Positions 8,013-64,000 of a stretch of DNA of 64,000 bases are shown here, piece after piece (position 1 is the stretch's first letter; each line of letters opens with the position of its first letter). The notes beneath the pieces are model-generated. The model had not been told where the DNA came from. It made no database searches and worked only from the letters and a program-made list of their open reading frames with translations. The DNA is from Psilocybe cubensis (lineage: Eukaryota). The translations under genes and the position numbers were made by a program. Location of the stretch: NCBI GenBank assembly GCA_017499595.2, contig CM039008.1, positions 2,976,001-3,040,000 on the forward strand. The letters are read 5' to 3'.

Positions 8013-8893
8013 TTCCAGTTTGTAGCGCAGAGTGTACAATATATACATGAACTTGAGGTTGCAGCAAAATACATGTTTTGTGTAAGCTAATATACGTGCA
8101 ATTGAATGAGTCTACTTACGACTCGAGGCAACATAAGGGGCACTAAATTGATGCCAGGAGCTATAAATCACTAAATTTCCTCTTGACGTCTTGGAGTTAT
8201 TAATGATCTTTCTCCTCTGAATCTGTTATTACATGCGTTGAGGATCCAATCTTACCTCCCGAAGAAAGTTATAAAACTCGAATAGCTTGACCATGACACT
8301 ATCTTATGCTCGGCTAGATTTCGACTCCGTAGCAGGGACAGCCAAAAATAAACACAGCGCCCATTCTTTCCAGGTATAAGCTTGAACATATGCCGATTCT
8401 GCGAGCCTGCACTGAAGAATTAGATCGGAGTAAGCATAATAACAATGTCATTTTACTAGTAAGTAACACCTATATTGAAATTCAGGCAACCTGAACTGCA
8501 TTTACATGTTTACTGATTTATCAGTGACCATAACACTCAATCTGTGTTTAAAATAGATTAGGTGAATTACTTTAGCGGAGGTTATCGTTATTTGATTCCG
8601 GGTTTCGCAAGTACCGAAATCAAGCACAACCACAGATGGATTACAATTTTATCATACTCTTGTACCCATACCTGTGCAATATTTCATTTGTCCATTTCGC
8701 GCGTCTACCTTGACATTACATGGGATATCCGATTGCCTGCCAGACGAGAACCGGCGCTCTCAAACTCCGGCATACTGTTGCCACTGTCAGTGATGTACGT
8801 ACCTAAAAATAATTGCCATTTATATTTAAGCAGGACGTTCTCTTACAGGATTCTTTCGTCTCCTTCATTCGTCTCCTCCTACTTGAGTGTACA

Positions 8894-11099
8894 ATGGAGC
8901 AAGGTTTTGAAGCAGCGTCGCTTCTTGGTGTATTCTTGCTTTTGTGGATAATTGTCAAAATTGTTGGTATTGGTCGTCGAGACCCAACACTTCCTCCAGG
9001 CCCTCCAACAATACCGATTTTAGGAAACCTGCACCTTCTGCCTTCAAAATACGTGTTCCTGAGGTATTATCAAATTACTCTGCGCTTTACATATAGTAAT
9101 ATGCGTTTTTCCAGGTTCTTGGAGTGGAGCAAAGAATATGGGGGGATTTTCTCGGTGAGAAAGCTGGCAATGATATCCGAGAAAACTAATCACAAAAGCA
9201 GCTGAAAGTCGCAAATTCGACTATAATCGTAATATCGGACATGCAGATTGTTAAGGAACTTCTTGATAATCGTGCCAGTGAAACATCAAGTCGACCTTCT
9301 ATCCATGCACTGGACGCAATTTGTGGAGGAAACTTCTTTGCTTTGGCATCATCACGTAACTTCTCGCTCTCAATGTCACCGCCTTGCATCTAAAGATGTC
9401 TGCTTAGATACCGACCTCTGGAAAACGGGTAAAAAATTAATCGGCCCCTTTATGACACCGAACGCTATCAAACCACGTATCCCTGTTGTCGAGCGAGAGA
9501 GCCTCCAACTCTTGCAAGATCTTGTACGGAGCCCAGAAGTCAGTGAACCGCTTGACTTGCCCATCATCTGGTCGATACTCATTGCTTAATTTGGCTTATC
9601 TAGAACCTATGCGCCCACATATTTCGATTCTCCTTATCGTCTGTAACCACCATCGTATATGGGGAAAGAGTGACTACCCACGACTCGGTTTATAGCACCG
9701 AGTTCTCGGGATATCTTGAACACTTCCTTAAAGCGATATCGCCAGAATCCGCCCCTGTAGATCTTATACCTCTTCTTCGATATATTCCTGCACGCTTTGC
9801 CCCATGGAAAGGCGTTTGGAAGGAGACTGGATTGCGCCAGCGACGCATCTACTCATCATTTTTTGAAGACGCCGAACGTGAAATCAAAAGTGGACGGCGG
9901 AGTGGAAATTTCATTGAGACTATATTGAATAGACAGGAAGAACTTGGACTAAGTCGTGATCTAGCTGTGTGAGTATCTATTTGGCTGCTCATCATTGAGT
10001 ACTAACGCAGTTATTAAAAGCTACCTTGGAGGATCCATGTTAGATGCAGGGACAGAATCAACATCCGCTATAGTTCAATCTCTTATTCTATGCCTCGCCC
10101 AGTATCCCGACGTTATGAAAAAGGCTCAAGATGAAATTGACAGTTATGTTGGAGATGGAAGGTTACCAGTACCTGGTGATATCGATGGCCTACCTTACGT
10201 CCAAGCTGTTGTTAAAGAGGTAACAAGATTCGACTATTACTTAATCCAGACTAATAAGATTTACCAACAGGTCCATCGTTTCAGAACGGCTGCCCCAACT
10301 GGACTACCACACGCGCCAACGCATGATCTTGAGGTAAGTTATGCTTTGCGAAGATATTCACGCCATCACAAACGACTACAGTATCGAGGTTGTATCATTC
10401 CAAAAGGAGCCACAATCATGGTTAACGTTTGTACGTCTATAATTAAACCACATATAATACGTACCAGCTAAATATTTGCAAACAACCTTGAAGGGGCGAT
10501 ACTCCATGACCCAGGTCAGTATTGCGGATCCTTATCCATATTCTTCACCAGGAATAGTATTAAAATTCTGGATCATTCAGAGCTCTTTGAATGTCCGGAC
10601 ACATTTTGGCCGGAAAGGTATCTTTTAAATCCAAATGGGACCAGGCCAGGACTGGAGAAAGATTACACCGTACGAACGAGCCTGCATTTCGGTAGCGGAA
10701 AGGTATGTCATGCATTGCGACGATATCCAACAATTAATCACCCATTACTCAGAGGCTCTGTCCTGGGATGCACTTTTCTAACACATTGATGGTATATTTT
10801 GAGCAAATTTCCCGAATTTTGACTGAAAAATGAAAAAAAGGGTATCGTGGCCATGCGACTGCTATGGGCTTTTAATTTCAGTCCAGAGAACGGATCCGCT
10901 AAGCCACACAACACTTTGGATATTATTGATGGATATACAGAGGTATTAACATTTTTTTACCATCGTAAACCGACTAACGACGTGCTATTAGGGAATTGCA
11001 TTTGCTCCTAAAGATTTGAAATGCAAAATTGTCCCTCGGAGCCAAGAAAAGATCGATATCATCACTGAGTATTACGATAACCAAAATCGCAAAATATAG
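8894..11099 (+). CDS. Cytochrome P450 (CYP64/OrdA-like group), copy 3, 13 exons
   Basis: [50 protein letters not shown]. Conserved exon layout. Stop TAG at 11097-11099. Confidence 0.92.
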
Positions 11100-42971: not shown

Positions 42972-44303
42972 CATGGCCTGCCCAAGTCAAGAGTCAGCAG
43001 CGGAGTTTGAAGTCCTTGACAACAGCAAGAACAAACAACGCGACACTGGTTGTCTTCCACCACCATCTCGTCGGACTCATCCCCCACCCACTCGAACGAC
43101 AATACGAACATTGTGATACGCGACTGGGGGAATTGGACGCGGGATAGCAAAGTCGAGGCACAGATGAGGGTGGAGGAGCGTCTAGGCGTGTGGTTTTTAT
43201 TCAATGTTTGTCTTTTTTTCGCTTTGGCACCTGGAACGGCACTCGAAAAACCCTGCAAGCCTCCCCCTTTGTCTGTTCCACCCTCGTTTACCCATTGCAC
43301 TGGAACATATTTTGCATCGACGCCGGTGCAGCTACACCATGTCGATATGACAGTTGGTGTGCTGCCTGCGTCGTGACGGATGTCCAAGTCTGTGCTCTCC
43401 AATGTGGTGGAAATGATGGTTTCGCTATCTCACTTTGTCTATCTTGTTCTTTGTGCAAGTTTATATGGATATTCATATGTTATGTGCTACCCCGTTCATA
43501 CGACGTCGAGCTCGACATGGACGCCAAGCATCTCTCATCCGGTCTCATCCGTTCGCTGGAATCTGCGGTTATCTCAGAACTTCACACTTCACGCTCATTC
43601 TGTATACTACCAATTCGTTGATATCTTGAAGACGCACTACCCTCAACCTCGTGTTTACCCCCCCCCCCCCCCCAACTCACTCCCCTCCCTGTCCTTCGAT
43701 TTTTACACACATCTATGTCGTGTCATTTCCTAGGCCTAAGGCAGCGCAGCACAGGGTTCCATGAGCACCATTTGGTTTGATGCATACCACAGCAATCTCG
43801 ACAGCCGATTTCTAATTCACCTTTAAGAGTACTGTCGTCGGGATGGGCGTAGACGTGGGCGCGGGCATGCGTGGGGTGAATATGAACCACAGTGATCCCT
43901 CCATAATGATTTCACATGCATCGCAGGGTGTTAAACAAGAAGGTCACGATGACGCTTGGGATGCTCCCCGGCCTCTAGACGGCGCATATATGCACTTAGA
44001 CGTCCAAGGGCAGTGCATAAATGCTTACGTTCACAGGTCTGAGGACGGTATTTTGGTGTAGATGGTGATGCGGTTGTTCCCTTCAAGAAGCTCGGTGTGC
44101 GTGCAGGCGTGTAGGAGGGTTGTACAGTGGTTTTGCAGGCGTGTGTTTGGACTCTAATTCGCGTGCATACGATACGCCATCTCCTGCGGTGTGGTGCGAT
44201 GGTCATCTGAATTGAGCAGCTAAGCGCTACGGGAAGGAGAAGAGATCCCTTCCATTCTGCGCCTTTCTGCTCAGTACTGAACCGCTTGCCTCTCGACGCC
44301 CCG
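42972..44303 (+). repeat. Diverged direct segmental duplication, copy A (degenerate spliced gene relic)
   Basis: Collinear similarity with 45764-47023, e.g. GCGGAGTTTGAA..CCTTGAC, HCTGTY, YDVE..HLSSG.IRSL, GAAGCTCGGTGTGCGTGCAGG, ATTCTGCGC.TTTCTGCTC. Confidence 0.85.
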
Positions 44304-45763: not shown

Positions 45764-46006
45764 AATGTCCTGCCGAGCGTGTCAGGCAAAGCGGAGTTTG
45801 AATGTCCTTGACACAGCAAGGACAAACAACGCGACTCTTGTCGTCTTCCACCACCATCCACGACCGTGACCCGTCTCTTCCCCCAGCCACTCACGACAAT
45901 ATGAACATTGCAATACGCGACTGCGGGATGGGTCGAAGGATACCAGGGTCTAAGCACAGAGGAGGGAGGAGGAGCTTCTAGGTGAGTGGTAATGTTTGTT
46001 TGTTTG

Positions 46007-46037
<31 letters not shown>

Positions 46038-47023
46038 TTGGCGCCTCGAACCGACACTGCGGAAATACTGGAAGCCTTCACCTCCACCTCTAACACCCTC
46101 GTATCCCCACTGCACTGGAACATACTCTGCATCGACGCCAGTGCAGCAACACCGTGTCCATATGACAGTTGGTGTGCTTTCTGCGTCGTGACGGATGATG
46201 AAGTTTGTGCTCTCCAGTGCAGTGGAAATGATGGTTTTTGTATCTCGTGTTCTCTATGTTGTTTCCTGTGCGCAAACTCATGCGTTATGCGCTACCCCGT
46301 TCATACGATGTCGAGTTCTGCATGGAGGCCACGCACCTCTCATCCGGTTCCATCCGTTCGCTGCAATCTGTGGATATCGCAGTGTTGGTGAGTCAGGGTC
46401 CCTTTTTCCTTCCACTCTCCCACACAATCCCGACCTCCCACGCTGCACGCCACCCTCGCTTTCTTGACTACCATACTGTCGACGCCAAATCGGACGCACT
46501 ACGACCCCACACCTCTCCCATTTGTAACTCAACCAACCCCTTGGTCCTCTCTAGGCATGACGTATCCCACGCAGGGCGTGGTCCTCCATGGGTTCTATGG
46601 CACCGGCAAGGGGGTAGAACACTGGAACGAGGTGGCTCCCCAGCCTCATGACAAGCGCATATGTGCACCTGGACGTCCAAGGGCAGTGCACAAATACTTT
46701 CGCTTACAGGTCTGTGCGCGGTATTTCGGGGTGGATGGGGATGTGGTTGTGCCTTTTGAGAAGCTCGGTGTGCGTGCAGGAGGTTTCACAGTGGTTTTGC
46801 AAATGAGTTTTCGACTCTTATGCGCGTGCATAGGCTGAGTTAACATCCCTCATTCATAATATCTTTCACTTTCTTCATCTCCTACAGTGCTGTGCGATTG
46901 TAATTTGAATTAAGCAGCCAAGCGCTGTGGGAGGGAGGAAAAACTCCTTTAATTCTGCGCTTTTCTGCTCCGTTCTGTACTGGTACGTATATTGTATCTC
47001 ATCGTTTGTCTCTCGACGGCCCC
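45764..47023 (+). repeat. Diverged direct segmental duplication, copy B (degenerate spliced gene relic)
   Basis: Partner of 42972-44303. Contains a T28 run (46007-46034) where copy A has a short T-tract. Confidence 0.85.
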
Positions 47024-47977
47024 TGCTATCTCCCGCTCCATCTCCCTTTACCTCACCCTCACACTAGATAGTTTGACTATTTCAATATTCAGGATTGTGT
47101 GATGTTCAACAACTAACCAATGGATTGGTGGGTATTTCTGACCGACGAGACCCGCAAATACCCCTTCTTTGTTCTTTCAAGTGTTCGACACTCATACTAT
47201 ATCTCTGTTTAGCGCTCAGCGACAACAATAGTGCCGTGTACTGTCAGTTCGCTACGCTCTATTCTATGCCCATTGCACTGCTTTTGCAATGTGTGTATAT
47301 TTCCACACTCCCCCTCTCCATCGCGTACTCATATCCACATCCCACTTCACATTCCAACCACCTTGTCGCATGGCATCGCATCTTTGAGAAGATAGATTCG
47401 TACCCAGTTGGAGTGGCCCTCGTTTAGATCTAAGGTCCAAGGTCTAATTAACTTCATTTCTAGTGTTACCTCACCACCGCGTCGAGTCGCATCGTGCGTG
47501 TTCCTTTGCATCGCATCGCATTGTGCATATTGTATACCACGGCTCCTCCTTCTTCCCATCCCTTCCCTTCCAATGACATCATTGCAACCTTGTCATACCC
47601 TCGCTTGTCCCCGACCGATTCGCTCTGTATCTCCAGTCGTCGTTTTCCGAGCTTGAACTCCAACCGTTGCGGCCCGTGGGTACCCTTGTCACCCACATCT
47701 CCATATCCGTGATTTCGATGCCGGATTTCTAATGTCGCATCATATTACATATCCGACCCTGCTCGTTAAGTTTTAAACATCTTGCAAGTTGGAACGTTGA
47801 CTTGAAACTGGTTTTTAGCACTTAATGCAAACATTAAAAATTTAAGTATTGATTTCGAGGTGGGAGCTGGGCACGTTCTTTGAGAGGTGTCAGATATAAT
47901 CAGGCATGTTCTGTCGTTTCTTGTGTGATGTACGAAGCTGGAGTGTGCGAGTGTGTGTTACATTGGGGCCTTGCGTC

Positions 47978-50758
47978 TCATTTGTGCAAACCGAATCTTG
48001 TGGGTGATGTCTCACAGTTAAAGTCTGGAAAGCGACACAACACGGTAAATCCAACTTGGAAATAAGTAAATGTCGGGCTACATGAAACCAGGATAAATTC
48101 AATTGATATACTGCCATTCTGTGTATTGACACGGATTTCCGGGACAGACAATAAACGAGCAACCACATCAAATCCCATGTCTGAAGCAAGTATTAGAGGC
48201 GTAAATCCCCAGCAATCCTGACTGTTGCCATTGATTCCTGGGACTGCTAGCAGGAGCTTCAAAACATCAATGTGACCATGATAAGCCGCAAAATTAAGGG
48301 CTGTAATTCCACTGCAGTCAAAACATGTTTGTTTGAGGTCCATCCCAGTAAGAAAGGAATCCATGATTGGATTATCATTGCTTTCACCAGTGGGAATGGT
48401 CAATGTGTAACGAGGTTGATTGCCTAGGTCCACATCAATGCCTGGGACAGTCAGAAGATGCTTGACAACCTCTGTATGACCCGCAGATGAGGCAAGCATA
48501 AGTGGTGTTACTCCCTCAGCATGCTCCCAGTGCTTGTTTTGTGATGACAGAAGACCGTCTACAATGGGCACATAACCCTCAACGGTGGCACGTACAAGTG
48601 CGGTGACACCCTGGAGACTTGGAACATCCGCCTTAATATGAGACATAGGAAGAAGAGCCTTTACAATGTTGTTGTGTCCACGCAGCATGGCAACAAATAG
48701 TGCCGTGAGGCCATTCCTATCCCTTAGGTTGGGATTCAGTCCAGGGATGGAGAGCAGGGCTTTTAAAACTTGAAAGGAATTTTTTGTGGCAGCCAGTAGT
48801 AGTGCAGTGTGTCCATTGTCATCTTGGGAGTTAACGTCAATTCCAGGCGCCCTGATCAAGGCACACGCAGTACCTGTATGATCCTTTAGGCAGGAATATA
48901 AAAGTGCGGTTCGTCCAGCCATGTCCGTGGCACTGACATCAATATTTGAGCATGCAAGCAGGGCATGGACGGCGCCAACATGTCCCATATGTGATGCATG
49001 CATGAGGGCAGTAGCGCCTCTGGAATCCTGAGCATTTGGATTAATTTTTCTTGTCAAAATAAGGGCCTGGATAATATCTATGCGTCCAAGATTGGAGGAG
49101 CACATCAAGGCCGTGAGTCCCCTCTTGTTTCATAAATTAACATTGATGTCTTTGCGAAGAAGAAGCATATTGACAACAGATTTATGGCCTTCTTTGCACG
49201 CGAGAGTGAGTGCAGTGTCTCCGCTGTTTGTTTGTGCATTGATATCAATATCCTTGCATGCAAGAAGTGATTCGACTATTGTGGTATGCCCTTTCAATGC
49301 AGCGAGTGTAAGAGCTGTGTGTTTCTTGACTGTCCGCGAGTTGCAACAACTGTCCCAGAAGAACGGTACCCTTAGACCATAGTATGCAATCACATGGCTG
49401 GGGTTAATCCAACTGAAACCAATCCGAGAATCAAGCAGTGGATAATTGGGAGTTTGGAGTACAAATTCATGCAGAGTCTCCGTTGGATATGATTCCTCGT
49501 TACATTCTCCAATGTGAGCTGGCCAATTCTTATATGCGTATTCAAGTAGAGGAGCGTCCTGAGATTTTACAAGGGCATCAAAGGCAGCATATGAGAGCTT
49601 GTCCAGCGTGGTAAAGCGAAAAGCAGTGAGGTAAGAAATGCAACAATTTGCAATAAATGTATGTGGTGCTGGCATGAGCTTCTGAGGCCAATCCTTTAAA
49701 AATTCATATACTGTATGATCTACATAGAGATTTTGGCTCAATAACAGTACAAAAACAGCACTGGTAAGGTGGAGTAACTTACGGAAAAGGACCACAGTTC
49801 CACTTCTTGGCTGGATTTCAATAATCCCACAGGATGATGTGTGAGCATATCTTGTGCAGGAATGTTCCTTTCATTGAACGAGTGGCTTCCCTCTTGAATA
49901 GCAAGCGCGTGCTCGAGTTCAGCAATGGTCAGAGGACGAGGAGCGTGAACTATCCACGTCATTGCACGCTTTACAAACGACGGGTAGTCCCCCTTTTGCG
50001 CATCAATCCGGTCCATGAGGGAGTAATACATTGACTGTATATCATCAGAGAGGCCGTCTAGGCTGTTGGATAAGCTTGTCATAGTAGTGTATCCCTGTAG
50101 GGACTGTGACCTCAGCGCCGCAAGTAGGAACCTGAAAAAAATCAATCAATTGTACATTTAAAATATCACAGCAGCTGATACGCACATTCCACCCGAAATA
50201 TTCAAGATCTTATTGCATATTTCCTCGAGAAAACCTTCATTTCTCCGCAGTATCCGAGCAACACTAGTTGTCTGCGGTATAGTTTTCTGGAGAAATAGAC
50301 GGATATCCCCAAGATTTTGGTCTCCAATGGTCATGTGTATGATGTCTTGTGGAAAGCCAAAAACCTCGAAACCCATGATTCGCGATGTGAAAAACAATGA
50401 TACTGTAAGGCCTCTAAGAATAGATACAAGATCCATTTGTTCACGGTCTGGCAACTCGTCAAGGCCATCCAGTACGACCCGAACATTTTGGAAAGGCAAT
50501 AGGATAGTGGAAAGTATGGCAACCAACTGGGATTTTGAAGGATGGCTTTGCTGTGTTTTGTGCACATTGTACAATTTAAGAACCTGCTTTTCAATCAATG
50601 AAACACCCGTGTAATTCTTAAACATCTGGGCAATCAAGGAAGCCAGGTATTGTGAAACAGTCCTGGGTTCGTTGTGTCGGCAGTACATGAAGAGAACGGC
50701 ACTACTGCAGGCGACATCTGATAGGCACAGGTTTATAAGGTATTCAATGACAATCGCC
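47978..50758 (-). pseudogene. NLR-like NACHT (NPHP3-N type)-winged helix-ankyrin repeat gene, 5'-truncated and inactivated
   Basis: Walker B VVLDGLDE, LFFTSR, SGGM|FLLA, WIVHAPRPLTIAELEHAL and about 11 ankyrin repeats (GxTAL..A...GH). The Walker A exon is absent. Frameshift at ~49840 (ACACA run) and in-frame TGA at 49130-49132. The true 3' end is uncertain. Confidence 0.88.
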
Positions 50759-50778
50759 CTAGTATTGGTGGATAAGAA

Positions 50779-51300
50779 CACTGCGGGCGCCGACCGCTGT
50801 AAGTTAAACATACAGCAGAAAACTTACATGTCTTATGTAAGTTTCGCTGTAAGTTCGACATACAGCACACGTGTATGAAAAACAAACAGTCGGCAAAGAC
50901 ATATTGTGTTTGGTGGCTGTATGCCGACCAAACACAATTGCTGTAAGTAGACTGTAAATAGAATAAACACCGAGATTACACAATTTCTTTTTGTCCGGTG
51001 TTAGTATAATATACACAATTGCTGTAAGTCATACAAACAGCACTTGTGTAAGTAAAACATACACACAAAGAAAACAAATTGTGTATGTCATACTTACACA
51101 ATTCCTGTAAGTAAGTGCTGTAAGTTAAACATACACCTGAACTTACAGTAATCGACTCGCTGAGCGAGTCGACAAGCGCGCGAAGAATTCGCATTTTTGG
51201 CGCGATGTCGACTCGCAGACGATGATAACACGATGGCATGCGTCGTTCTGGCGACTCGCTGCCCTTTGAAAAATCTCGCAGTCGTCAATGTGTAGTGCGC
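50779..51300. mobile_element. Putative left terminus of a CACTA/CMC-superfamily DNA transposon (CACTG end plus subterminal repeats)
   Basis: CACTG begins at 50779, immediately beyond the NLR intron acceptor remnant. It is followed by many TGTAAGT / ACTTACA copies in both orientations and a perfect 9-bp hairpin TCGACTCGC-TGA-GCGAGTCGA (51152-51172). No matching right TIR was seen in the window. Confidence 0.65.
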
Positions 51301-51667
51301 GATTCATTAATAAATATGATATATTTTCAGCGTTTTGCGCAATTCTATTTATTACACTCGTTGGGTACTTAATATAGCTGGCGCCCTACCTGGCGCGCCT
51401 ACACCCGACTCACCTGCAGACATTGAAAATTCTGAATCTTTGGCCTTCCCTAGTGTGAGTCTGCAGTGAGTACTTTAATCTGTTCGTTTGCCATCGTTTG
51501 TCACCACCATCTATAAATTGATCCCACTTACACAACTTTCCCGCAGCCTTTCTTATCACCAACCACAACCACAACCACTCACTCCCTCGCTCACTCGCTC
51601 TTACCGACTACCACCCACATCGATCTCCACACCCACCCGCTTATTCGTTAACCGCGAATCTCTTACC

Positions 51668-52229
51668 ATGGCTGCACTCATCTCTCAAGTCGTTTCGGCC
51701 ATCGTAGGCTTCAAGTATGGGTTGAAGCACAGCATCGCGTCGGGATGTTGGATAACGGAGCGCGTATCCGCGTATGTGGGGTCGGTTTGTGGGGAGGTCT
51801 TTCGTTATATCGAAGAGCGTAGCGATACCCCGGTGATGGTCAGAGGTCGCAATCGTACGCATCGTTGAATTTTTTTTTTTTTTGAATCTGCTCATCCCAG
51901 TTTCGTTAGGCGCTCAAATCACGGATGTCGAAGCCCAGAATTTACGCACCACCGACGCTGACTGCAACGCCGACTTCGAGGAAATCGAGGACCTCCTTCG
52001 GATTCGTCAAGAAATAATGGATCTTCATACCCTTCTCGACAACAAACGCGCACTCACCCGGCCTATGACGCCCGAAGCGCACAATATCAACATCGACCGA
52101 TTCGCTCTCGACCATAGGCACCGGCTGAACGACATCGCTATCGAGGCGCAGATTCGCGCCAAGTATCCGTCGAGGAACGAGTATCTCGCAATCTGCAAGA
52201 AATACGAGGTTTCCCCCTTCCGCACCTAG
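51668..52229 (+). CDS. Small two-exon hypothetical protein (putative transposon cargo)
   Basis: TATAAAT at ~51513, ATG at 51668. Intron 51846-51900 joins MAALISQVV..PVMVR to VSLGAQITD..CKKYEVSPFRT* in frame. Confidence 0.6.
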
Positions 52230-52879
52230 CAGGCGTTCTCAGCGTCATTCCAGCGTCTTTATAACTTCTTGGGGGACTCACCCACTACCCTACTCCCCGT
52301 CATCTTTCTAATCGTTTTCTTGTTTTCTTGCTTTCGATTTTCAGTATTTGATCTGCTGTATATACACGCTCACTTTTGTATTCAACGATACCTCTAATGT
52401 GTAGTCTACTGTTTCATATTGTATTATACTGTCGCATATCCATTTTATTTCTCAGTCAAGTTCACTCCGGTTCATTCATAATTAATGAAATAAGTTGGCT
52501 CGCCGAGTGACCCGTTGATAATCGACTGCTCGTATGATGGGTGAGTCAGGGAGTTGTGGGTCAAGATGTCCTTTGCGGGGTGTAAACTCTGCGGGTGTTG
52601 CGATAGAATTGCCAGTGCCGTATTCGTTCACAAATTCTCTACATCCTCGCAGAAGCTGCCGGTACAGCAGCAAAACGAACCTCTAAGCACAATCGAAGCT
52701 AAAACTACATTTATCGGCACGATGAATTAACGCCTCCAACTAGACGTCACGATGTGTAACCTAAGACATGGTAATAACGCAGTACGTACCTGTTCATTAA
52801 CCCGGTAATATTGAGCTTTGTGTAGGGAGAAAGGTCGTGCACATCCATGGTGAGATTAAAAAAATGTGGTTAGGATGAG

Positions 52880-53702
52880 ATGAGTTTTACCTGCATAACC
52901 ACTCGTCGCTCAGCCTTTCCAGTCCTGATATCGTACAGCGTGAATGTCCCGTCGGATCCTATACTTGCGAGCACCGATGATTCGCTCATTAAATCGTACA
53001 GATGTGATAGTTTCGGTTGATGTTGGGAAAGTGAGAAGATGGATAGATTGATCCTCGCTTAAACGCAGCTTTCCCGGGAATACATTAAGAGGCTAAAGGG
53101 CAACGGTTAAAGGATTAGAAATTGAGCTCAGTAAATAAAAGAAGCGCTGATGCGGACATGCAGCGCTGTCGTCCGAGGGTGTTGACTTACCACCTCCGTA
53201 TTCAGGTTATCGTCTCCAACGGCCCATAGGCTTCACGTTACGATCGACACCGCAGCTAAGAAGCCTTTGACCATCCGGAGAGAAGCATAGCCCTGACGCT
53301 TTCCCTTGTGCGCCTGGGGAATTTTGGCGATCGGTTTTCGGGTTGCAAGATTGTGGAGGATTATTCCTGGTTTATTCCAATTCCATCATTTAGTGATTAT
53401 CGCCTGCGTGATTAGAGAACCCACGCACACACCTCCATCCCAGCTTCCACTGGCCACACCTGTTAGGGAGCCAGGTCGCCTGTACAGGACCTCAACAGCA
53501 TCGATGTGCCCTTCCAGACTGTCCACAAGCGGCTTCGCGAACATCCTTTCCATTTTAACCGCATTCAAAGCACGGGTTCGTTCTCTCGCACGGGCAAAGG
53601 GTGCATAAGGGGGTTTAAATTCCGAGATGTAGGCGTCGGGGGTCTCCAGGCCGCATTGGCAGATGTGTGTAGACGGGTCATGTTGGAGTACTGAGATTTT
53701 CT
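52880..53702 (-). pseudogene. SOF1: Frameshifted partial copy of SOF1/DCAF13 (U3 snoRNP WD40 protein)
   Basis: KISVLQHDPSTH..SRNLNPLMHP/FARARERTRALNAVKMERMFAKPLVDSLEGHIDAVEVL..VASGSWDG|GII..AHKGK..LLSCGVDRNVK, and later SESSVLASIGSDGTFTLYDIRTGKAERRVVMQ. Several frameshifts, internal loss, no start codon and no C-terminal Sof1 domain. Confidence 0.88.
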
Positions 53703-54528
53703 AAGCTCTTGCCTGACTCTTCATCCTCCTCTTTCTCAGAGGGTGTCGACTGAGCCAGCGGCGTGGACGTACGGCCATCCTTCCAGCGTCCTCCAATCCC
53801 CCGCTATCGCCCTCGTGTCATTACCAGCCAATCGCACCTTGGGTTCGAGACGGCGGCGCTGCGATGAGAGTTCGCACCGCGGGAAAGATCTGGGACAACA
53901 GTGTCATGTGAGTGAGACTCTTCCTCTTTTTCTGCTCACTTACCTTCGCTTGTATACTAGTTGATGGCGGGGTGCGCGCTATGACAAGTCGCGTTGTCGT
54001 ACACGATGCGCCTTGTTAGGAATGTCCTGCCAAGGTGCGTCACCACCCTTTATCAGTCTTAATTACTGTACTAACCTTACCTGCCATTCCTTCTTTGAGA
54101 TCGACGATGACGACGACGACACAGGCGGGGTCAAGGGAGCAGAGTGACGAACTGCGAATACTTGTAAGTTACCTACGCAGCTGGAATTTCACGCTTGCTC
54201 ACCTCTTGTCTTTTCAGCGTGTCTGTATCGGTGTTGTTGGCGTGCGACTGCGATAGGGAGTTGAGGGGTACTGCGACGGCAAGAGGTCAGTCATTGGAAA
54301 ACTATGTCATACTCTGATGCTCACTGTTGTTTTACCACTTCCAGTCACTTCAAATCACCATCGTTGGCCTCGTATCTTCTTATGGATCAAGGGTGTCGGG
54401 GGCTGTCATAGGAGATGATGGAAAGGACCTTTACTTACCCAAGAATGCCCGCCACAACAGCGTACGCACACCGGAGACCGACTGACACCGGGGTGCGTTG
54501 CGATGAAAAGAAACCGCTGGCCAACGAC

Positions 54529-54918
54529 GAGCGCGTTGCTGGAAAAGTGCGTCAATGCTGTAGGTATGGGTTATCAAGGTTTCTACTCACCGTTTTGTTC
54601 CCACTCGCAACCGCGCCAGCATGTCCGTGTGTCTGTGCGTCAAGTCAAATTCCACATAGCATGCATTACGACGGACACTCACTATGGCATTGCGTTCCGA
54701 GTGCCCGCCACATCTGTGTACGCAGCAGGCTGTGAAGTGTAGTCGGTGAGGAGCGCCTCACTGGCAAGGTGCGTCAGCAATGTGTTTATAAACTGTCAGG
54801 TTTCTGCGTACTGTTTTGTTCCCTGTCGCAACCGCGCCCGCGTGTCCATGTGTCTGTGCGTCAAGTCAAACGCCGCGTAGCATGCATTGCAACGGACACT
54901 CGCTATGGCATCGCGTTT
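54529..54918 (+). repeat. Diverged tandem duplication (two ~170-bp blocks, ~220-bp period)
   Basis: GTTTTGTTCCC..TCGCAACCGCGCC..GTGTCTGTGCGTCAAGTCAAA..GCATGCATT..ACGGACACTC.CTATGGCAT occurs twice. Confidence 0.85.
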
Positions 54919-54958
54919 TGGCGGCATGTTGTTGACGAGAGAGGCAGAGGGGATTGTC

Positions 54959-55219
54959 GAGGTGCGTCGTCGACGTTTGCAATAGGTTGGAACTGCAGCG
55001 ATGGGCGGTGAGTCAGTACCAGGGCGCCGTTTAGGGGATGCTGCTCACCATACTACATCCTCAAGATTGTTCTGTCAAGCACACCGTCAGCGCCGTCGTT
55101 GAGACTACATACTGCAATACACATACCTTGTAGAGGTGCGTCGTCGACGTTTGCAATCGGTTGGAACTGCAGCGATGGGCGGGGAGTCAATACCAGGGCG
55201 TCGTTTAGGGGATGCTGCT
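54959..55219 (+). repeat. Near-identical direct repeat of ~87 bp
   Basis: GAGGTGCGTCGTCGACGTTTGCAAT.GGTTGGAACTGCAGCGATGGGCGG..TTTAGGGGATGCTGCT at 54959 and 55133. Confidence 0.9.
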
Positions 55220-55329
55220 GTCACTTGGCGCAGCGGCGAGGATGTGGGAGGTAGATGTGAGAGGGGGACAGCATGCAGAAACACTGCAGCACATCGGTTG
55301 AGTACACATCCAATCACAATACACAAACT

Positions 55330-56840
55330 CTACTCACCTGGAGATATGAATCGCGCCTTCAAGGACCGCCGCTGAGTGCAACATTGACGCGTCCACTCCC
55401 ATCTCGCTGCTCTGCCACTCTGGAATTTCGTTGTTGGTAGCAGTAGAGGTAAAAGCAGAGGACAGGAACAGGAACAGGGTCGGGGTCGGGTAACGAGCAT
55501 AAAAAGACGAGTAGCTCGGCGTCGAGTTCGAGTGTTGCGACGCTTCGCAGGAAGGGATCGAGTGATACGATCCGTACGGTCAAGTCGTCTGGACTTTTGT
55601 CGGTCGTTTCGGGTGCTGCTTCTGCTTCGTCTGATAGAGATAAAGATAAGGAGAAGGATGTGACTGCTGGTGCTGGTGTTGTGGATGAAGGTAGGCCGCG
55701 CTCGAAGGAGATGCAACTGCAGGCAAAGGGGTTGCCGACTTCCCCACCGCTCCCGCCGCTCCCTCTCTCTGTCGACTCGCCGAAACTGAAGGCGTCGCCT
55801 TTGCTCCCGTCCTTGATGCCACTTGCTTCTTCACTCACACATCCACCATCCTCATCATCCCTTTCACATCCACCATCCTCTTCTTCCCCCTCCCCTTCCC
55901 CACATGCACATGCCCATCCACATTCACATACACACTCGCCACCACCCCTACACCCAACTAAAAAATCATCAACGCTCACCAACACCACCACCGCCTCCAT
56001 CAACAAACCCCTCTCATCCATCGACTCCCTACTCGCATCCGACGTGCCCACGGGCGCTACACTTGAGATCGGCATCCCATGCTCATCTCGTCGAAGCGGA
56101 AGCGGCATCCCCCCCGCGAGCGAGAATGTCGTAGACGCAACAGCTGTCCCAAACTCTAAGTAAAGGTAATAATGTAAATAAAATAAAAATAAAGAAAATA
56201 ATAATACCCTCCTGTCGTTGATGGCGACGAGTACGACAGGTTGGAAAATTAGGTCTGCTCCCGCCTCCTGCACTGCTCATGAAGCCGCAGACTAATCTAC
56301 TGCATTCCACAAGTACGTAGGTAAAGTCGAGAGGAAATGCAGCGTTCTCGTTCATGCACTCCATGCACACGATACACTCGTGCTGAGCGTTGGCTGAGCG
56401 TTTTACCAGCGTTTACGGATTTCGCCAGTCCGGGAGACATGAAGAGGTTTGAACGGGAGTTGGGTTTGCTTCTGCGCGAATTGGCGCGTTTGGTTAGATA
56501 TTGTATGAATTGCATCGTGTTTGTATGCGGATGAAAATGGGTTGCAACAACGATAAGCACCTTTAAAAAAAGGGGGGAAGGGAAAGGAAACCTTGAATAT
56601 TTTCATGAACCCAGCAATATTGGGTTTTGTGCAGGGAACCAGGTTGTGCACGTCCGCGACGGGGATAGCAATCTCATCGAGACCACGGAAGCGCTCTTCA
56701 AGCCCGTGGAACTCGTCGGACTCTTCCTCTTCATCATGTTTGTAAGGGAGAATGTGTCCGAGCCAGCGTCGTGGGCGTACGGGTCGCAGAGCTGCGCCTT
56801 TATCTCAGCGTTGAGCTGTTTTGGGGAGGTGGATGGTTAA
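55330..56840 (+). pseudogene. Degenerate gene fragment: S/P/H-rich exon followed by a helical coding-like segment
   Basis: Long low-complexity ORF 55597-56163 plus ERWLSVLPAFTDFASPGDMKRFERELGLLLREL and TEALFKPVELVGLFLFIMF. No intact model could be built. Confidence 0.35.
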
Positions 56841-57581
56841 TCTGCACGTCTGCACGTCTTTTTCCGCCTCGTATGTAGTCCTGTAGAACTTGGATGTTAG
56901 ATGTCTTATGACGAAGACGAAGATTAAGGTTAGATATAGACAGTATGGAATCACGACGTACATTGAACGCAGAGCGTCATGGAAGGGTGGACAGGCCGAA
57001 GACGATTCTACAGAACGATGGCATTGGTTGACAGGTCACGCAAGACAAGCTGGGGAAGGAAACACACCTGCGCGGGGCATCAACGGCGTCTTTCCTACAA
57101 GCTCAACTGACAGGCACACGGTGTGTTTCGACTATGATCGACGACTTTGACTGGGGAGACACTATGTAGGACATCGGAGAGCTAGGGGGATCAGGAACAC
57201 AATCTAATCATGAGCATCAGTATATGATACTCAGATTCCGCGCGTCTAAGCGTCACCCTAGTCGCTGAAATCAACAGTGTCGTCTTTTTGGGTAAAAATG
57301 AACTGGCGCTGACGCTATGTGTAGACGGGGGCGTTGCAGTTGCGTTGGAGGTTCTGTCGCTGGCGTTGACGACGGCGATGCTGCGAAGAACATGAGAAAG
57401 GAGAGGCCTACAGGAAGGGTGCACGGGGTCATGGTGTAACGTCAGTGCTCGCAGGGAAGTTGGCGTACCCAGAAGAGGGGGAAAGAATAAGTTGTCCCAG
57501 TAAAGATTGCCGATTAAAGGAACTATTGAGGTCTGCGTATGTTGTGCGCAAATTTTAGACCTGAGAGACAGCGAGAAAGAT

Positions 57582-58055
57582 GGGAAGCGCGTCAACATGT
57601 GCTCCTCCAATTGGCGCATACAGATCAACTTTCTCGGTATTAGTTATATTGACAGAAGCGAGTTAAGTCTTGAAGCTCGTCGGTGCATACGGTGTTCGAG
57701 GTAACGTGCAGGAAACATGCACGATTAGGGTACATGGGTATAGTGGGAAGTACAACTCCAGGGCGCGCTGAGCGTGTTCGGATCCGGCCGGCCCGGAAGA
57801 CGTGTGCCGCGGGAAGCACCTCAACACGTGCTCCTCCAATTGGCGCATACAGATCAACTTTCTCGGTATTTGCAGTTAGATTGACAGAAGCGAGTTAAGT
57901 CTTGCAGCTCGTCGGTGCATACAGTGTTCAAGGTGGCGTGCAGGAAACAGGCACGATTAGGGTACAAGGGTATAGTGGAAAGTACAACTCCTTCTGTTCA
58001 GGGCGTGCTGAGCGTGTTATGAGCGTGTTCGGATCCGGCCGGCCCGGAAGACGTG
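57582..58055 (+). repeat. Tandem duplication, ~230-bp unit
   Basis: GTGCTCCTCCAATTGGCGCATACAGATCAACTTTCTCGGTATT...GGATCCGGCCGGCCCGGAAGACGTG is present twice (57582-57804, 57811-58055). Confidence 0.92.
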
Positions 58056-59090
58056 TACCGCATACAAAGAGCTTCACGCGCGTGCAGAGCGCATAACCTG
58101 CGCGTGGATATGACCGTTCCGGGGTATGAACGTGCTCCTTCCGTGAGCTGACCCGCCTCTCTGACTCGTCTACCAGCGCCATTTCCACCAGCTCCAATGT
58201 CACTTGTGCCGTTTCATCTTCCATCAGCACCGTATCTGTTGGAAGAAGACTTGAAGCCAGTGACTCACTACGCTCTCCGCTCCAATGCTATCTGATTCAC
58301 GCATGAATATGAGTGTGGGCTTGCCTGGTCGGCTGCCCGTGATATATTGAACAATTTAATAACGAATTAATCTAAATCAAATATATCAGATTCTTGCAAA
58401 TCAGATTTTGCGATACAGATCCGTCCAGAGATATACGTATTACAAACTTCAACTTACCTATGACGAAGTATGATTCAGGACCTGTATCGTGACCGGCTTA
58501 ACCCCCGCAGATTGAGCAGCGACCAAATAACGTGCGTTTGAGTGGAAGATTATCGTGTTGCTCAGTTGTCGAGACCCTATCGTGTAGATTTCACCCCGAC
58601 CTTGCCCTTCGACCGCAGATTCACCTGTTCATGGAAGTGAGCCGTGGGCACCGATGTCCTGGAATGATCAGAACGAAAATTTCTGCTTACCTCTCGTGAA
58701 AGGGACGCATGCGACGGGCGACGGCTTTTAAACCAGCCTCATTGAACACGATGACCGGTAGCATAGAGCGTAGTTTGACTCGTCAAGTGCGCTGAGTGTG
58801 TAACTCTGATTTCGCTGTCATTCTGGACTTTGCTTCGGAGTTCTAGCACCTAAAAAGGGGGTCAAAACCACAATAAGTTACGGTTTGAAGATCACTTAAC
58901 CTCCTCGCAAATCCTCCTTGCTCACAACTCTATAATGGTATCATTTAAGTATGCCCTGTACCAAACACGCATTACCTTTGAGGTATTTCTAATGCCTGAC
59001 TTTCAGACCTGATCCCACTAGCTACTCGCAGACATTAAAACCACGTAAAGTTATATACACATTATGAGTGCGCGTAACTACAAATGCTGG

Positions 59091-60747
59091 CTACAACTCT
59101 AAATTTTCTAAATTTCCCTCATTTGCGTTGAGGAGCCCGTAATATTGCGCCTTCGAAGTCAAGAAAGCGAACAACTAAGGTAGACATTGCTATTAGATAT
59201 AAAAGTTGAGGCCAGATGACGAATTCTTACAGCAAAAAGATATGGTGCCCAGTTAGCGTAAGTGCATGCCATGACAAAAGCAATGAAGGGACCATTGGTT
59301 CTGGCATAGTGAAGGAGCGTATTTGCAGGCTGTGTTTGAGTTTCACCGACGCCAACAAAGGGCTGGCTCCGCTTTTCCCACAGATAGATGAAGCCATTAG
59401 AAGATGCTGCAATACAGACTTTGCGACTCTCCGCCATGGTTACTGCAATCGCCTGTGTCATGTGAGCCTCTGTGAACATGTTTGAGCGTCAGAAAGCATA
59501 AGATACGGCAAAAGATCAAACCTTTTGGACTTGAGGTAAGGGTCTGCAGAACGTAATTATTGGCTACGTCAAAGATATGTACCTTATTAGTGTGGCTACC
59601 GCACACCGACAGTTTCGTGCCTTCAATGAAACGGCACTGCTTTATGAAGTATTTGTGGGTGGTCACGGAGTCCCCAACGGCTAGGGTCTGGAGAGGAGAC
59701 ATATCAGGAGTTTGGTAAACATCAAAATTGCCGTTGTTGAGATTGTTGACGATGATAACAGTCTGGTCGCTCGAAATCGCAGCAGATCCGCTACATGAGC
59801 TTATCAGTCGAATATAAGGTAAAATATGTTAATATGCGTACATCCCACTGGCGAGTTTTTTGGTCCAGAGCACTTCGCCATTGGAAGCGTCCCGACAACA
59901 ACTAGCAGAATTAAGAACAGTTAGAACAGTTGAACAGCGTGGTTAATTGATATTACGTTGATAAACATACACGTCACCATTCTCTAGTCCGAAGGACAGC
60001 AACTTTTCATTTGTTGACCCGAAGAAGAGGACCGACGTCGGAATACCAGGTCGGTTACTGGGAGCTTCCCAGACGAGATTCGCTGAGCCAGCTACAGGCA
60101 ATAAATAAATGGTACAGAAGAAACCAGGAATAACCCTTACCGACTGCATCAACAGAATACATCTTAACAGCTCCGGAATGACTGGAAGCAATCAGCCTGC
60201 CGTTTATCTTATCAAATACGAGGTTCTCCACGATGTCATTTGGGGTGAACAGCTGGATTACGGTTCCTCTCTCCGTGAAAGGCTACGAGAGAGAATTAGT
60301 GACTCGCTAGGATATCCTCTGATTGGCACACCTTAACAGAACGAGAGTCCATTAAAAACATGCTCATACCACCAAAAACATTCCCGACGCATAATACGGT
60401 TGAGGGCTCCCTCGAAGGTAATTCGGTATACGCCCACGCTAGGCAACTAACTTGCCCCCACTGCTTGTTCTCGAGGACTTGTTCAGTCCGGAAAGTTTCC
60501 GTGTTCCATATAAAAACCTTGTCGCGGTCACCTATTTTGTTGCATCAGATTCTCGTTCCAATAGTGAAAAGCAAAGAAATAGTATACCTGCAGCGACCAA
60601 AAATTTTCCATTGCTCGAGAAGAGCAAGTGATCAACGTGTTCAATCCCTGGGTTCTTCAACTCCTTCGCAAGGACGAAAGAGCTATTCTGTTTCAACGGT
60701 TAAAGTAAATATTCTACATTTCAAATGTCACGACGTACCAAGTTCAT
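59091..60747 (-). CDS. WD40/beta-propeller protein with C-terminal hydrophobic segment (multi-exon)
   Basis: Spliced: MNL|NSSF..LLFSSNGKFLVAA|GDRDKVFIWN..QWGQVSCLAW..LIASSHSGAVKMY..SAAISSDQTVIIVNN..CGSHTNKVHIFD..GFIYLWE..FIAFVMACTYANW. The 3' end is tentative because further exon-like segments continue to ~58400. Confidence 0.78.
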
Positions 60748-61614
60748 GATGTATAAGTAGGTATAAGTAGACAGATAGGATAGCACTGTGGTGTACGGGC
60801 AAATGTGGCAAAATGTTTGATTTGTGGGGTGAAGGTACTTTTATTCAAAGCCTGCCGTGTCTTGTCTTTAAGATTGAGTACGTCGTGTTGCCTTTCAGCT
60901 CACCGGAGATATGCCTAGCGCTGGATCCGCCTTTCGACACAAGCGGGTCATCAACGAGACGACAGCGTGTTTGTTTCGTTTATTCTCTCACCCGGGATCC
61001 CTTTCACTATCACTATACAATCCGAGCTTTGTTATTTTTCAGTTATGTTTGGGTGGGATGCTTTAGCAGACTTCAGTTTCTCTCACTCTACTAGAAGAAG
61101 TAATCTAACTACAGGAGTCGCTGAAACTACGTATTTTTTACAGACTGTCGGGTCGTGGTGGAGGAAGAGCGAACCGTGCGAAAATGCTTGAACGAGAATA
61201 TTATAGTGCACAGATTTCCATGCCGCTTCGGCAACTCGCCGAAGCGGCATGGAAATCAACACGGTATATCAATGCTGGCGCGCGACCGGACCACCTTTCC
61301 GACCTTCTTTGTTCATCTCCTCGTCATGGGGAAACATCGTCTTCCTCGATGAAAGAGTTCTTTCTGTATAATTTGTAATTGTACCCTTTCTGAATCAATA
61401 GACCTAATAGATCAGTGTGAAAGCAATCAAGCAGTCCTCCGCAAAAGCCGTTTGACGCGTAAAACACGCCCACAGCGACTTGATAATGCCTGTGTGCTAT
61501 CGACTGTGCGTATATTTCAAGCCCCTCGCCATCCTACCCTTCTCATATTATCAATTCACCACCAACCTTTCTTAGACGCTCTTTTCTGCCTCCTTTCAAC
61601 TTACTCGTACGACC

Positions 61615-62536
61615 ATGGAGAACACTACTCGTCAAGCTTCGTCATCAGGTTCCCTGGTGGAACCTGTCCCCATGGCCGTCTCCGAACCCTATATCGGATT
61701 TCACCACCCTATGGTAACATCGCATATCAACTTTACACCAGTCTCTCGTTCTGCTCCTCCTGTTCCCAAAACAGCCATGAGGATTAATTGGGAACCAAGG
61801 AGGTCTTCCGCTGATTTACCTGACGATAACGACGACCCCTCACTTGCCCCTGCACCTGCTAACCCTTCACAGTCAACTTCCTCGTCTGCCAACTCTCCGA
61901 ACCCAGACCCTCCGAACCCTGCTGCGACGGCAGGGCCGTCGCAAACCACTTTACCCGCTCAAGGTGTCGCTACCGCAGGGCCCTCGTCTGCGCCAGTAGG
62001 CACTTCAAAAGTCATCATTATCCGGAAGCCCCCAGGTGAACCCGGTCGCCCAGGATCGGGTGGTTTTAATTTGGAAGATGTACTTGTGGGCGAGCACGAC
62101 TGGGCCTTATCGGACGTTGAAACCCTGCAGGTAAGTTTATTTCGTTCGTCCTATATGTCTTTTCTTTACTCTATCACACAGGATTGGCTTCGCAGAGAGG
62201 CGACCAAGACTCTCCGGCTCGATGCTAGTTATCGGTCGCAAAACCCGAGACTGATTGAGAGAATATGCAACAAGGTGTGTTCTGGTTTCAGTTCTGCTCA
62301 ACTTATCTCATGTTTTGCAGGCTATGCGTCCCGAGCACTGGCCTGTTTTGGCTAATTACGACAACTGTTGGCCTGTCAAGAGTGCCCTGAAATTGATCCT
62401 CAAATACAAATCTGAAGCCTCGCGACGGGTAGAAGGGCGGAAAATGGCTGTGCGCGTTCGTAAAGCTATCAATAACCAAGAGGGCTCGCATGAATCGTCT
62501 AGCGAGGGCGGCAGTGGTAGCGATGAAGAGGCCTGA
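61615..62536 (+). CDS. Conserved agaricomycete hypothetical protein (KPxGEPGRPxSGGFNL..W..CWPV motif family), 3 exons
   Basis: P/S-rich N-terminus, then IRKPPGEPGRPGSGGFNLEDVL..W|DWLR..YRSQ..ICNK|..PVLANYDNCWPVKSALKLILKYKSE and an acidic tail. Introns are canonical and in frame. Confidence 0.75.
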
Positions 62537-63192
62537 ATTCCCTCCCCCCAACTCTATACCATTGTGCCCTGGCTTGTTATACCTGTCCTTCCTTTATTTG
62601 TAATGGTCTCTCCTCTCTACTCTTTTTTTCACGTTCATTTCCACATGCACTATTCATGTCCGACTCTAATCCACGTTCCTTTCCTCCTGCATCTGTTATT
62701 GCATACTATTCGGGTTTGAAACTCGTTGACATTGCTTTTCTTTACCCCGTCGCTCGTTTCCTGTACAACCTTTCTTCCCATACCATTATCAAATGTCTTA
62801 ATGTGGAAATCCCTATGTCTCAATTTTAAAGTCATAGTCGCTCACTGTGAGGATGCACATCGTCTCCGAAAGTTTAATGGAAGTTTTCTGTCAGAAGACA
62901 AATTAGACATGAGCTATGATCCGCTTCCGAGCCCATTTTGACAAGTAAGTCTTGAACACATCGAAACCCAAGCTTGATTCTAACTTATCTAGACACGTTT
63001 GAACACGCCGGCCGAACTTCAATAACTTATTGTATCTGCCATAACGTTACACTGTGAGTACAACTGTTGTGGAGATAAGATTAGGTAACTACAAGGTAAC
63101 TAAACTATCCAGGGTCGCTCGAAAGTCACAGGATAAAAGTTGCGATTCTCCCTTCCCCACGACTTTTGTCGTCTGCTACCATCTACAAAACT

Positions 63193-63720
63193 ATGGAATC
63201 GGGAGACGGATATTGCGCCAGAAACCACTATCACTTCCCGGACACACAGCGGCAGCAATTGCGGCAATTTCATGTCATCACATCACCCGCTCAATCTGTA
63301 CCAACCTATTCCCATCTACCTTTTCCAGACGGCGATGGGCACCCTAAATGCCCCAGTTGCACGAAGTCCATGAATAATGCAAATCGAAACCCCCCGTATA
63401 ACCAACGCTTTACTTATCGATCACACGTATCACTCGCAAATAATGCAAACCGAAGTCCTTTGCCATACAATCAGGTCTCACTCACTCGGCCACCTGAGCT
63501 ACTCGACGTCACTCTTCCAAGTGATTATCTGAGTATTTTGGTCCGAGTTCAACATCCCACAATTGACCCCGGGGCTTCCTCCACTAATCGATCGAACTTC
63601 GAGCCTCATCCGTGCCCGTATATTTGCCAACTTTGTCCCTACCTTCAACAGATCATGTATCAAGAAGGCCCTCCCGAAGATATAGTCGGGATACAAGCAG
63701 TACGTTCAGCTTCCGTATAG
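63193..63720 (+). CDS. Hypothetical protein with Cys/His clusters and a short internal repeat
   Basis: ORF from ATG 63193 with HPKCPSC, HPCPYICQLC and NNANRNPPYNQ/NNANRSPLPYNQ. No family recognised. Confidence 0.3.
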   Translation: MESGDGYCARNHYHFPDTQRQQLRQFHVITSPAQSVPTYSHLPFPDGDGHPKCPSCTKSMNNANRNPPYNQRFTYRSHVSLANNANRSPLPYNQVSLTRPPELLDVTLPSDYLSILVRVQHPTIDPGASSTNRSNFEPHPCPYICQLCPYLQQIMYQEGPPEDIVGIQAVRSASV

Positions 63721-64000
63721 TTCGCATTGCCTTGTACTTATCAAGAATTTCCCCACAGCGATCACCGATACCCCCTGAGAAAATATCTACCTATTCGGAA
63801 TTGACACCCCATCTCCAATATATGCAACAACATCAACGTCAACGATCGGAGGAAAGATAATCTCGAGCAAGGGTATTAAGTTCCTGCGCCATGCTTCCTG
63901 TTCTAATAATTCATGAGTTTGTAACAATGTCAGAGTCACTGGTTCTATTTAATTTTACCGCGACTTTCTATGAACGAATGCAACCATAAGGGTTTATGTG

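Follow-up and report, generated by a model that had tools for sequence, protein, structure and literature searches.

Positions 50779–64000 of a 64,000-nucleotide stretch of the Psilocybe cubensis genome (contig CM039008.1, positions 2,976,001–3,040,000; the whole stretch is referred to below as the window) are likely to represent the left arm, with some of the interior, of a large gene-carrying DNA transposon that has recently been active in this species and has interrupted an immune-type (NLR) gene. An earlier note on the same DNA had proposed the left arm of a gene-carrying mobile element of more than 13 kb, and its proposal is supported by an exact boundary, by multi-copy genes and by an apparent empty site. 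The element is at least 13.2 kb long and probably measures 20–30 kb, with about 13 genes by gene count.

The outer terminus, CACTGCGGGCGCCGACCG, occupies positions 50779–50796 on the forward strand; reads and contigs break here into unrelated flanks, and the sequence is unique in the window. It opens with CACTG (50779–50783), continues with GC-rich CGGGCGCCGACCG and leads into a subterminal block (50797–51148, forward strand) of ∼25-nt units (GCTGTAAGT..ACATACAGC) that are found in both orientations and include hairpins, as judged from repeat counts, folding and depth. The flank visible on its left reads ..AAGAA. The motif CTGTAAGT is present seven times in the 64-kb window, always inside 50797–51148 (six copies on the forward strand and one on the reverse), where 1.72 are expected and none of 100 shuffles reaches seven. 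TGTAAGT-N5-ATACA has five copies in the block (four forward, one reverse) and one further copy at 23504, against an expectation of 0.03. The units are themselves small palindromes (GCTGTA..TACAGC), a perfect 12-nt inverted pair (50903–50914 and 50927–50938) can form a hairpin, and the segment 50779–51180, folded as single-stranded DNA, reaches −86.1 kcal/mol compared with −43.7 ± 4.0 in shuffles (z = −10.7). The switch to CACTG, the bidirectional TGTAAGT repeats and the perfect hairpin had all been described in the earlier note and are confirmed. Next to the block, at 51152–51262 on the forward strand, a 21-nt palindrome (51152–51172) and three CGACTCGC-type motifs make up a second class of internal repeat (repeat family D6, inverted pairs I23 and I24). 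Dense subterminal repeats in two orientations are typical of transposase-bound ends such as those of En/Spm and Ac; in En/Spm the repeats are bound by an accessory protein, while cleavage is the task of a DDE transposase. By the same analogy, a protein encoded by the element presumably binds the repeats described here.

A repeat family ends exactly at 50779, with the C of CACTG. This follows from a comparison over 46001–64000 with three contig sets (X6, X8 and X9) and one raw-read run, X12, for which a depth of ∼35× is expected (1,632 million letters read; contig sets of the species hold 40–50 million letters). In X12, 1,136 reads carry loose letters in front of the boundary, 738 before 50779, 302 before 50778 and 96 before 50777. 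These letters agree with their consensus at only 0.36–0.48, which indicates many different flanks, and the fall-off over the two preceding bases is what would be expected from chance matches to the two A's. X6, X8 and X9 contigs break at this position too, so that other genomic copies do begin at CACTG, as the proposal of a mobile element had implied. Depth in X12 rises about 15- to 30-fold at the end, to ∼455 in the 600-nt bin 50801–51400, from ∼35 in the left flank and ∼15 in the interior. Some CACTG ends lie within other copies of the repeat block (50856>50779, 19 reads; 50779|51047 on opposite strands, 15 reads) and point to nested insertions; the joints seen in X12 include no matching pair from which a target duplication could be derived.

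The interrupted gene lies on the reverse strand, where exons 2 onward (47981–50758) encode the rest of a NACHT (NPHP3_N) domain, a winged helix and ankyrin repeats. These exons, identified by Pfam, by 100% exon identity and by paralogs, correspond to the annotated protein P0001 (JR316_0012016), which agrees fully with the window throughout its exons, mismatches being confined to exon edges. The proteins closest to this NLR bear the name Psilocybe cubensis. Pfam recognises only positions 41–164 of the 164 of NPHP3_N, followed by GPIID_WHD and Ank. Coding sequence ends at an AG acceptor on the reverse strand (50760–50759), and the 20 nt between the acceptor and the CACTG boundary (50759–50778) are, from the sequence and the exon boundary of the paralogs, the 3′ remainder of a small intron; the position of this acceptor, about 20 nt from the switch, agrees with the earlier note. 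Paralogs such as P0002 read ..LLLDGKPGSGKTVLA|AIVIEYL, with GKPGSGKT directly before the break and an exon boundary at GKT..A|AIVIEYL, and homology to the window begins at AIVIEYL (50757). Nothing in the window matches the N-terminal ∼104 residues of the paralogs, Walker A included, so that the 5′ exons are indeed missing from it. NACHT-ankyrin proteins of the NPHP3_N type combine Walker A (GxxGxGKT) and the rest of NACHT in one gene, and the window NLR does not.

P0001 begins with residues translated from the element end (..RSAPAV..) and is thus a chimera. This gene model takes one ..TTACAG of the repeat block as its acceptor (50797/50796). GTAAGT, the usual fungal 5′ splice-site consensus, occurs six times on the forward strand in the repeat units of 50797–51148, and ..TTACAG is found on the reverse strand; element ends of this kind therefore present gene predictors, and perhaps the cell, with false splice sites. 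Outside the window, the model of an NLR paralog, P0003 (JR316_0001596), starts exactly at the ..|AIVIEYL boundary after an unrelated start of 15 residues; either this intron has been cut in a second gene as well, or a long intron has been modelled wrongly.

Comparison between samples reveals an apparent presence/absence polymorphism at this site. One X8 contig matches the window up to 50778 and then continues with 48 unlike letters, which begin TGAGT when read on the reverse strand and would, together with 50778–50759, form an ordinary intron of about 50 nt. The contig breaks exactly at 50778/50779, and with the support of depth it provides an apparent example of the empty-site allele that the earlier note had suggested looking for. 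In X8 the contigs of the left flank have depths of 40–68, the NLR body 84–97, the arm 77.1 and the interior 42.7; the NLR body is thus about twice as deep as the element interior, which fits one filled and one empty haplotype. The X12 depths (left flank ∼35, NLR body ∼17, arm ∼33, interior ∼15) read as one haplotype with this NLR allele and one element. In X9 (left-flank contigs 24–26, arm 104.7, interior 44–49) the element is present, and no contig covers the NLR body over 48401–50200, this flank being missing or too divergent.

The genes inside the end are multi-copy and identical. Three intact genes are found there, an orphan gene close to the end (P0013), a gene for a WD40 β-propeller (P0012) and P0005, and exact look-up returns each as identical sequences under several accessions. 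P0005 occurs as KAH9476155, KAH9476186, KAH9476445 and KAH9480902. The WD40 protein occurs as KAH9476154, KAH9476187 and KAH9480901 (JR316_0011725, JR316_0011758 and JR316_0007503), models that differ in one intron call only. P0013, with at least five accessions or locus tags, is found on three contigs as KAH9476150, KAH9476162, KAH9476191 and KAH9474224 (JR316_0007511 and JR316_0013497 among the tags). Since the window NLR is KAH9476441, KAH9476445, four numbers later, is taken to be the window copy of P0005.

At four or more loci, spread over three contigs, the three proteins are found again in unchanged order. By accession, one unit runs from P0013 (150) through WD40 (154) and P0005 (155) to P0013 (162), and a mirror-image unit from P0005 (186) and WD40 (187) to P0013 (191); another contig has WD40 (07503) followed by P0005 (07504) and P0013 (07511). 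In two units P0005 and the far P0013 are equally spaced, with six genes between, which suggests a unit of about 13 genes bounded at each end by P0013. Being multi-copy and conserved in order, the downstream genes are not single-copy syntenic core genes, which the earlier note had named among the findings that would refute its proposal. Identity of the protein copies points to recent movement, and the presence of at least four units in the annotated genome, together with the differences between runs, indicates that copy number and position vary between strains.

Depth and gene order suggest that the arm is repeated in inverted orientation at the other end of the element. A contig of 1,361 nt spanning 50942–52302 is identical in X6, X8 and X9, with depths of 26.4, 77.1 and 104.7 against 13.7, 42.7 and 44–49 in the interior, that is, roughly 1.8–2.4 times the depth of interior contigs. 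In X12 the bins over 51401–53800 average ∼33 and those over 56201–64000 ∼15. A ratio of ∼2 in all four runs is what an arm present twice per element would give, and from contig depth and P0013 order its minimum extent is placed at 50779–52302 (forward strand), the inner limit being approximate. We infer inverted arms of at least 1.45 kb, the right arm included. Consistent with this, an older gene model of 329 residues, P0015, fuses an NLR exon, with ..GKPGSGKTIIA as its last residues, to the exact translation of 51323–52226, as would be predicted where an inverted right end lies within an NLR on the reverse strand. The NLR exon of P0015 belongs to a distinct paralog, being 73–76% identical to P0002 and P0004, compared with 63–68% for the NACHT part. 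The arm gene also has a paralog of 163 residues outside the window (P0014/P0016; source name n=9; four accessions, five contigs), 50–58% identical to P0013. Because P0014 recurs as identical proteins on five contigs, a sister family of large elements is probably present in the same genome.

These features suggest the following history. The element would terminate in CACTG, with short repeats of both orientations over the next ∼370 bp, and each inverted arm (at least 1.45 kb) would bear a complete copy of the small orphan gene P0013. Its interior would hold the WD40 gene, P0005 and a fragment of a SOF1 pseudogene and, past the edge of the window, about six more genes, among which any transposase should be sought. 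Insertion is envisaged into an intron of roughly 50 nt between the Walker A exon and the rest of the NACHT-ankyrin NLR, 20 nt upstream of the acceptor, and would have parted the Walker A exon from the remainder of the gene by more than 13 kb. Most likely the insertion inactivates that NLR allele. Movement would be by a cut-and-paste mechanism using a DDE transposase of the CACTA/EnSpm kind.

Several observations weigh against a single large transposon at this locus. Neither a right end nor a target-site duplication is seen within the window, and Pfam scans detect no transposase domain in 110 open reading frames of at least 60 residues from 47.8–64 kb or in 82 of at least 100 residues from 1–47.9 kb; the earlier note had likewise seen no transposase in the window. 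No second copy of the 18-nt end occurs in the window at up to three mismatches, nor any inverted match of 50779–51500 or of a larger block, in agreement with the earlier failure to see a right terminal inverted repeat in the remaining 13 kb. Of the letters with which the X8 contig continues past 50778, the first 30 have no match in the window at up to three mismatches. Gene order is taken from consecutive accession numbers, without coordinates and with the listed locus tags in support, the window's own WD40 copy is not among the three listed cluster members, and contig depths, as sums over whatever was aligned, give copy number only roughly. P0015 may belong to the window NLR or to another paralog that also has no exon 1, such as P0003. 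Finally, the family consensus in X12 leaves the window copy after 51045 (144 reads, agreement 0.95) and after 51101 (147 reads, 0.92), which assigns the majority of copies of the first ∼300 bp to other elements.

The departure of the consensus bears on whether the transposon is confined to ∼50779–51150, being a solo or truncated terminus or else a short non-autonomous element, with the adjoining 13 kb a segmental duplication and the NLR 5′ exon lost by rearrangement. Only the first ∼300–370 bp are at high copy, X12 depth from 51401 onward being at or below the single-copy level, and no right end appears in the window; some NLR paralogs, P0003 among them, are truncated with no element in view, and segmental duplication is common around NLR clusters. 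We nevertheless consider this explanation unlikely, since the 1,361-nt contig links the repeat block (from 50942) to the P0013 gene in all three contig runs, and P0013, ∼890 bp in from the terminus, is found again to either side of the WD40/P0005 pair, equally spaced on two contigs. A solo end is further at odds with the twofold arm-to-interior depth in four of four runs and with P0015, in which NLR exon 1 lies directly upstream of an arm copy. A chimeric assembly at 50779, with the NLR and the 13-kb block not true neighbours, is very improbable. The break does fall precisely at the border of a high-copy repeat, a place prone to false joins in assembly. In the junction-spanning region 50300–51500, however, 0.81–0.95 of sampled words are present in runs X1–X7 (0.56 in X9; no RNA dataset is listed as containing the junction words), and the X12 and X8 depths of NLR body, arm and interior fit one haplotype carrying both. 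The accessions from the NLR (KAH9476441) to P0005 (KAH9476445) are also consecutive, but come from the same assembly and are not independent evidence.

It is also improbable that a giant element of another mechanism ends in CACTG by chance, whether through a tyrosine recombinase (Starship- or Crypton-like), in the manner of a Helitron, or as one of the KDZ elements (Kyakuja/Zisupton). Such an origin is suggested by the carriage of several genes, as in cargo-mobilising elements, and no enzyme is seen that would contradict it; against it, the first 13 kb contain no DUF3435-type recombinase, helicase or KDZ domain, and the dense two-orientation repeats are of the transposase-bound type described above. 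The element resembles the Starships of Pezizomycotina in bearing several intact genes as one unit, in presence that varies between strains and in near-identical copies. It is much smaller, belongs to another fungal phylum, has ends of the transposase-binding type and has no captain as its first gene: the 13 kb inside the end hold no DUF3435 tyrosine-recombinase captain, and the first gene there encodes the 168-residue P0013. Helitrons (5′-TC..CTRR-3′) are not matched either, the ends being CACTG on the forward strand and ..GCAGTG, which misfits the 3′ CTRR, on the reverse; no Rep/helicase is found, and the arms are seemingly inverted. Kyakuja elements of Agaricomycotina, as characterised in PMC12730594, are multi-gene with 5′-CA..TG-3′ termini, no inverted ends and 7-bp duplications, and Zisupton is there assigned 8-bp duplications. 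The window element shares with the Kyakuja/Zisupton group and with Plavaka the character of a multi-gene DNA transposon of mushroom-forming fungi, and its CA start agrees with Kyakuja; the long inverted arms that it appears to have argue against membership, given the description of Kyakuja as without inverted ends. KDZ, CxC, Plavaka and TET/JBP domains are all absent from the window by Pfam, and the search for transposases inside the end that the earlier note had recommended, Plavaka and KDZ domains included, found none in the 13 kb.

For a large transposon ending at CACTG, as we prefer to read this locus, the closest likeness is to En/Spm (CACTA) elements, which it resembles in the CAC(TG) start, in dense bidirectional subterminal repeats within the first ∼370 bp, in large size with several open reading frames and in a host-gene fragment. 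Plant CACTA elements carry host-gene fragments. To our knowledge, gene-containing inverted arms of at least 1.45 kb are not a feature of CACTA elements, whose inverted ends are short, and the window element would differ in arms of this length, each with a whole gene, and in carried genes that have no relatives among the CACTA elements known. As in EnSpm/CACTA, the region near the end has repeats in both orientations, far above chance. PMC12730594 gives EnSpm termini as 5′-CAC..GTG-3′ with 3-bp duplications and places EnSpm in Agaricales, and PMC6431247 describes EnSpm families of 16–20 kb with 4–5 open reading frames in a red alga. The left end agrees exactly, as CACTG, and the right end lies beyond the window. 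Assignment to CACTA/EnSpm, drawn from the end features (CACTG and the subterminal repeats), is as such unsupported, and membership is not established because no enzyme, right end or target duplication is seen. The CMC-type attribution of the earlier note draws on these same end features, and its link to Plavaka is contradicted by the termini reported for that group. PMC12730594 gives TGT..ACA as the ends of PlavakaA and CATCA..TGATG as those of PlavakaB, which differ from CACTG; with no Plavaka domain found, Plavaka is rejected. No description of this element was found in the literature searched, supplementary files being outside the search, and metagenome scans returned no match to the 26-nt end.

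With low probability, the element could represent an undescribed giant-transposon lineage of Agaricales, with inverted arms of ∼1.5 kb each encoding P0013, and with WD40, P0005 and P0013 as its own machinery rather than cargo. Homologues of the WD40 protein in Psilocybe cyanescens, 77% identical and located on contigs of 10.5 kb and 1.6 kb, suggest that the WD40 gene may be part of the element and not recent cargo. Either P0005 or P0013 could be a candidate binder of the TGTAAGT-N5-ATACA repeats. On this view the element may also prefer the Walker A intron of this NLR family, a second paralog, P0003, being cut at the same exon boundary. Large multi-gene DNA transposons are well documented in ascomycetes (Starships) and poorly described in mushroom-forming fungi. 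Here, exact ends, near-identical copies on several chromosomes and strain differences in one cultivated species make movement directly testable. An NLR allele knocked out by a single insertion would be a source of variation in fungal genes for non-self recognition. When the transposase sequence becomes available, the gene-bearing inverted arms and their orphan gene could mark out a new lineage of transposons. At loci of this kind, models such as P0001 and P0015 are chimeras of host exon and element and need correction.

The 13 kb inside the end contain a host-gene relic, duplicated fragments and three intact genes, much as first described. P0013 (51668–52229, forward strand) has exons 51668–51856 and 51912–52226 followed by a stop, matches its annotated protein at 100% and is an orphan of 168 residues: among 1.84 billion representatives its relatives form two clusters only, P0013 itself and P0014. 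Its C-terminal half is helical, and in a structure model with a mean predicted local distance difference test score of 59 only residues 86–168 are confident, as a helical hairpin, residues 1–85 scoring below 50. The relic, from a SOF1/DCAF13-like WD40 gene, lies at 52485–53700 on the reverse strand; it has TAG in place of the start codon and its pieces are in different frames, and the reading frame 53389–53700 (reverse strand) matches DCAF13 residues 2–97 (E = 1.4e-14). Self-BLAST reveals local duplications on the forward strand between 54526 and 55219 (54526–54696 with 54748–54917; 54954–55045 with 55128–55219) and a further pair at 57582–57810 and 57811–58061. X12 depth reaches about 2× at 53801–54400 and 55001–55600.

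The intact WD40 gene P0012 (59094–60696, reverse strand; 407 residues) matches in all exons. P0005 (61615–62536, forward strand; 274 residues), whose exons are 100% identical, belongs to a Basidiomycota-wide family of unnamed proteins. A protein atlas returns only unnamed Basidiomycota clusters for it, at 0.92–0.95, and its structural matches all fall below the bar; among them are an HTH_NOL4-like helical part and a plant cluster in which some members have Transposase_24, and these serve as leads only. Metagenome scans with the P0005 alignment gave 469 pattern matches and no relatives. A 45-nt near-perfect palindrome (93%) lies at 61213–61257, ∼360 nt upstream of the P0005 start codon. P0013 and P0005 have no Pfam match at E up to 10; P0014 and the reading frame 63193–63717 have only chance-level matches in that range, and the latter has no usable atlas match. 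None of eight single-exon reading frames of 54–64 kb was found by exact look-up in the protein collection.

From 62537 to 64000 (forward strand) Pfam and similarity searches recognise no gene, and the X8 and X9 contigs show further element interior running off the window. The contigs over 58027–64000 (X8) and 63328–64000 (X9) extend 4,379 nt past 64000 and stop at the same position, which could be the next repeat boundary; the X6 contig extends 926 nt past. On the other side of the insertion, diverged direct duplications directly left of the NLR (42999–44282 and 45790–46980; 76% over 607 nt and 70% over 356 nt) adjoin a long A/T run near 46000. A second gene of the non-self-recognition type, ∼30 kb away from the NLR, lies at 16606–17601 and 15466–16602 on the reverse strand and encodes a protein with a heterokaryon incompatibility (HET) domain (E = 4.9e-23). 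Elsewhere in the window, a DUF6699 family protein is encoded at 21877–22521 on the reverse strand (E = 2.1e-27), and pieces of cytochrome P450 genes cluster at 1656–10786 on the forward strand, with a diverged tandem duplication (6094–7351 and 1656–2930, 67%; 7487–7702 and 3060–3281).

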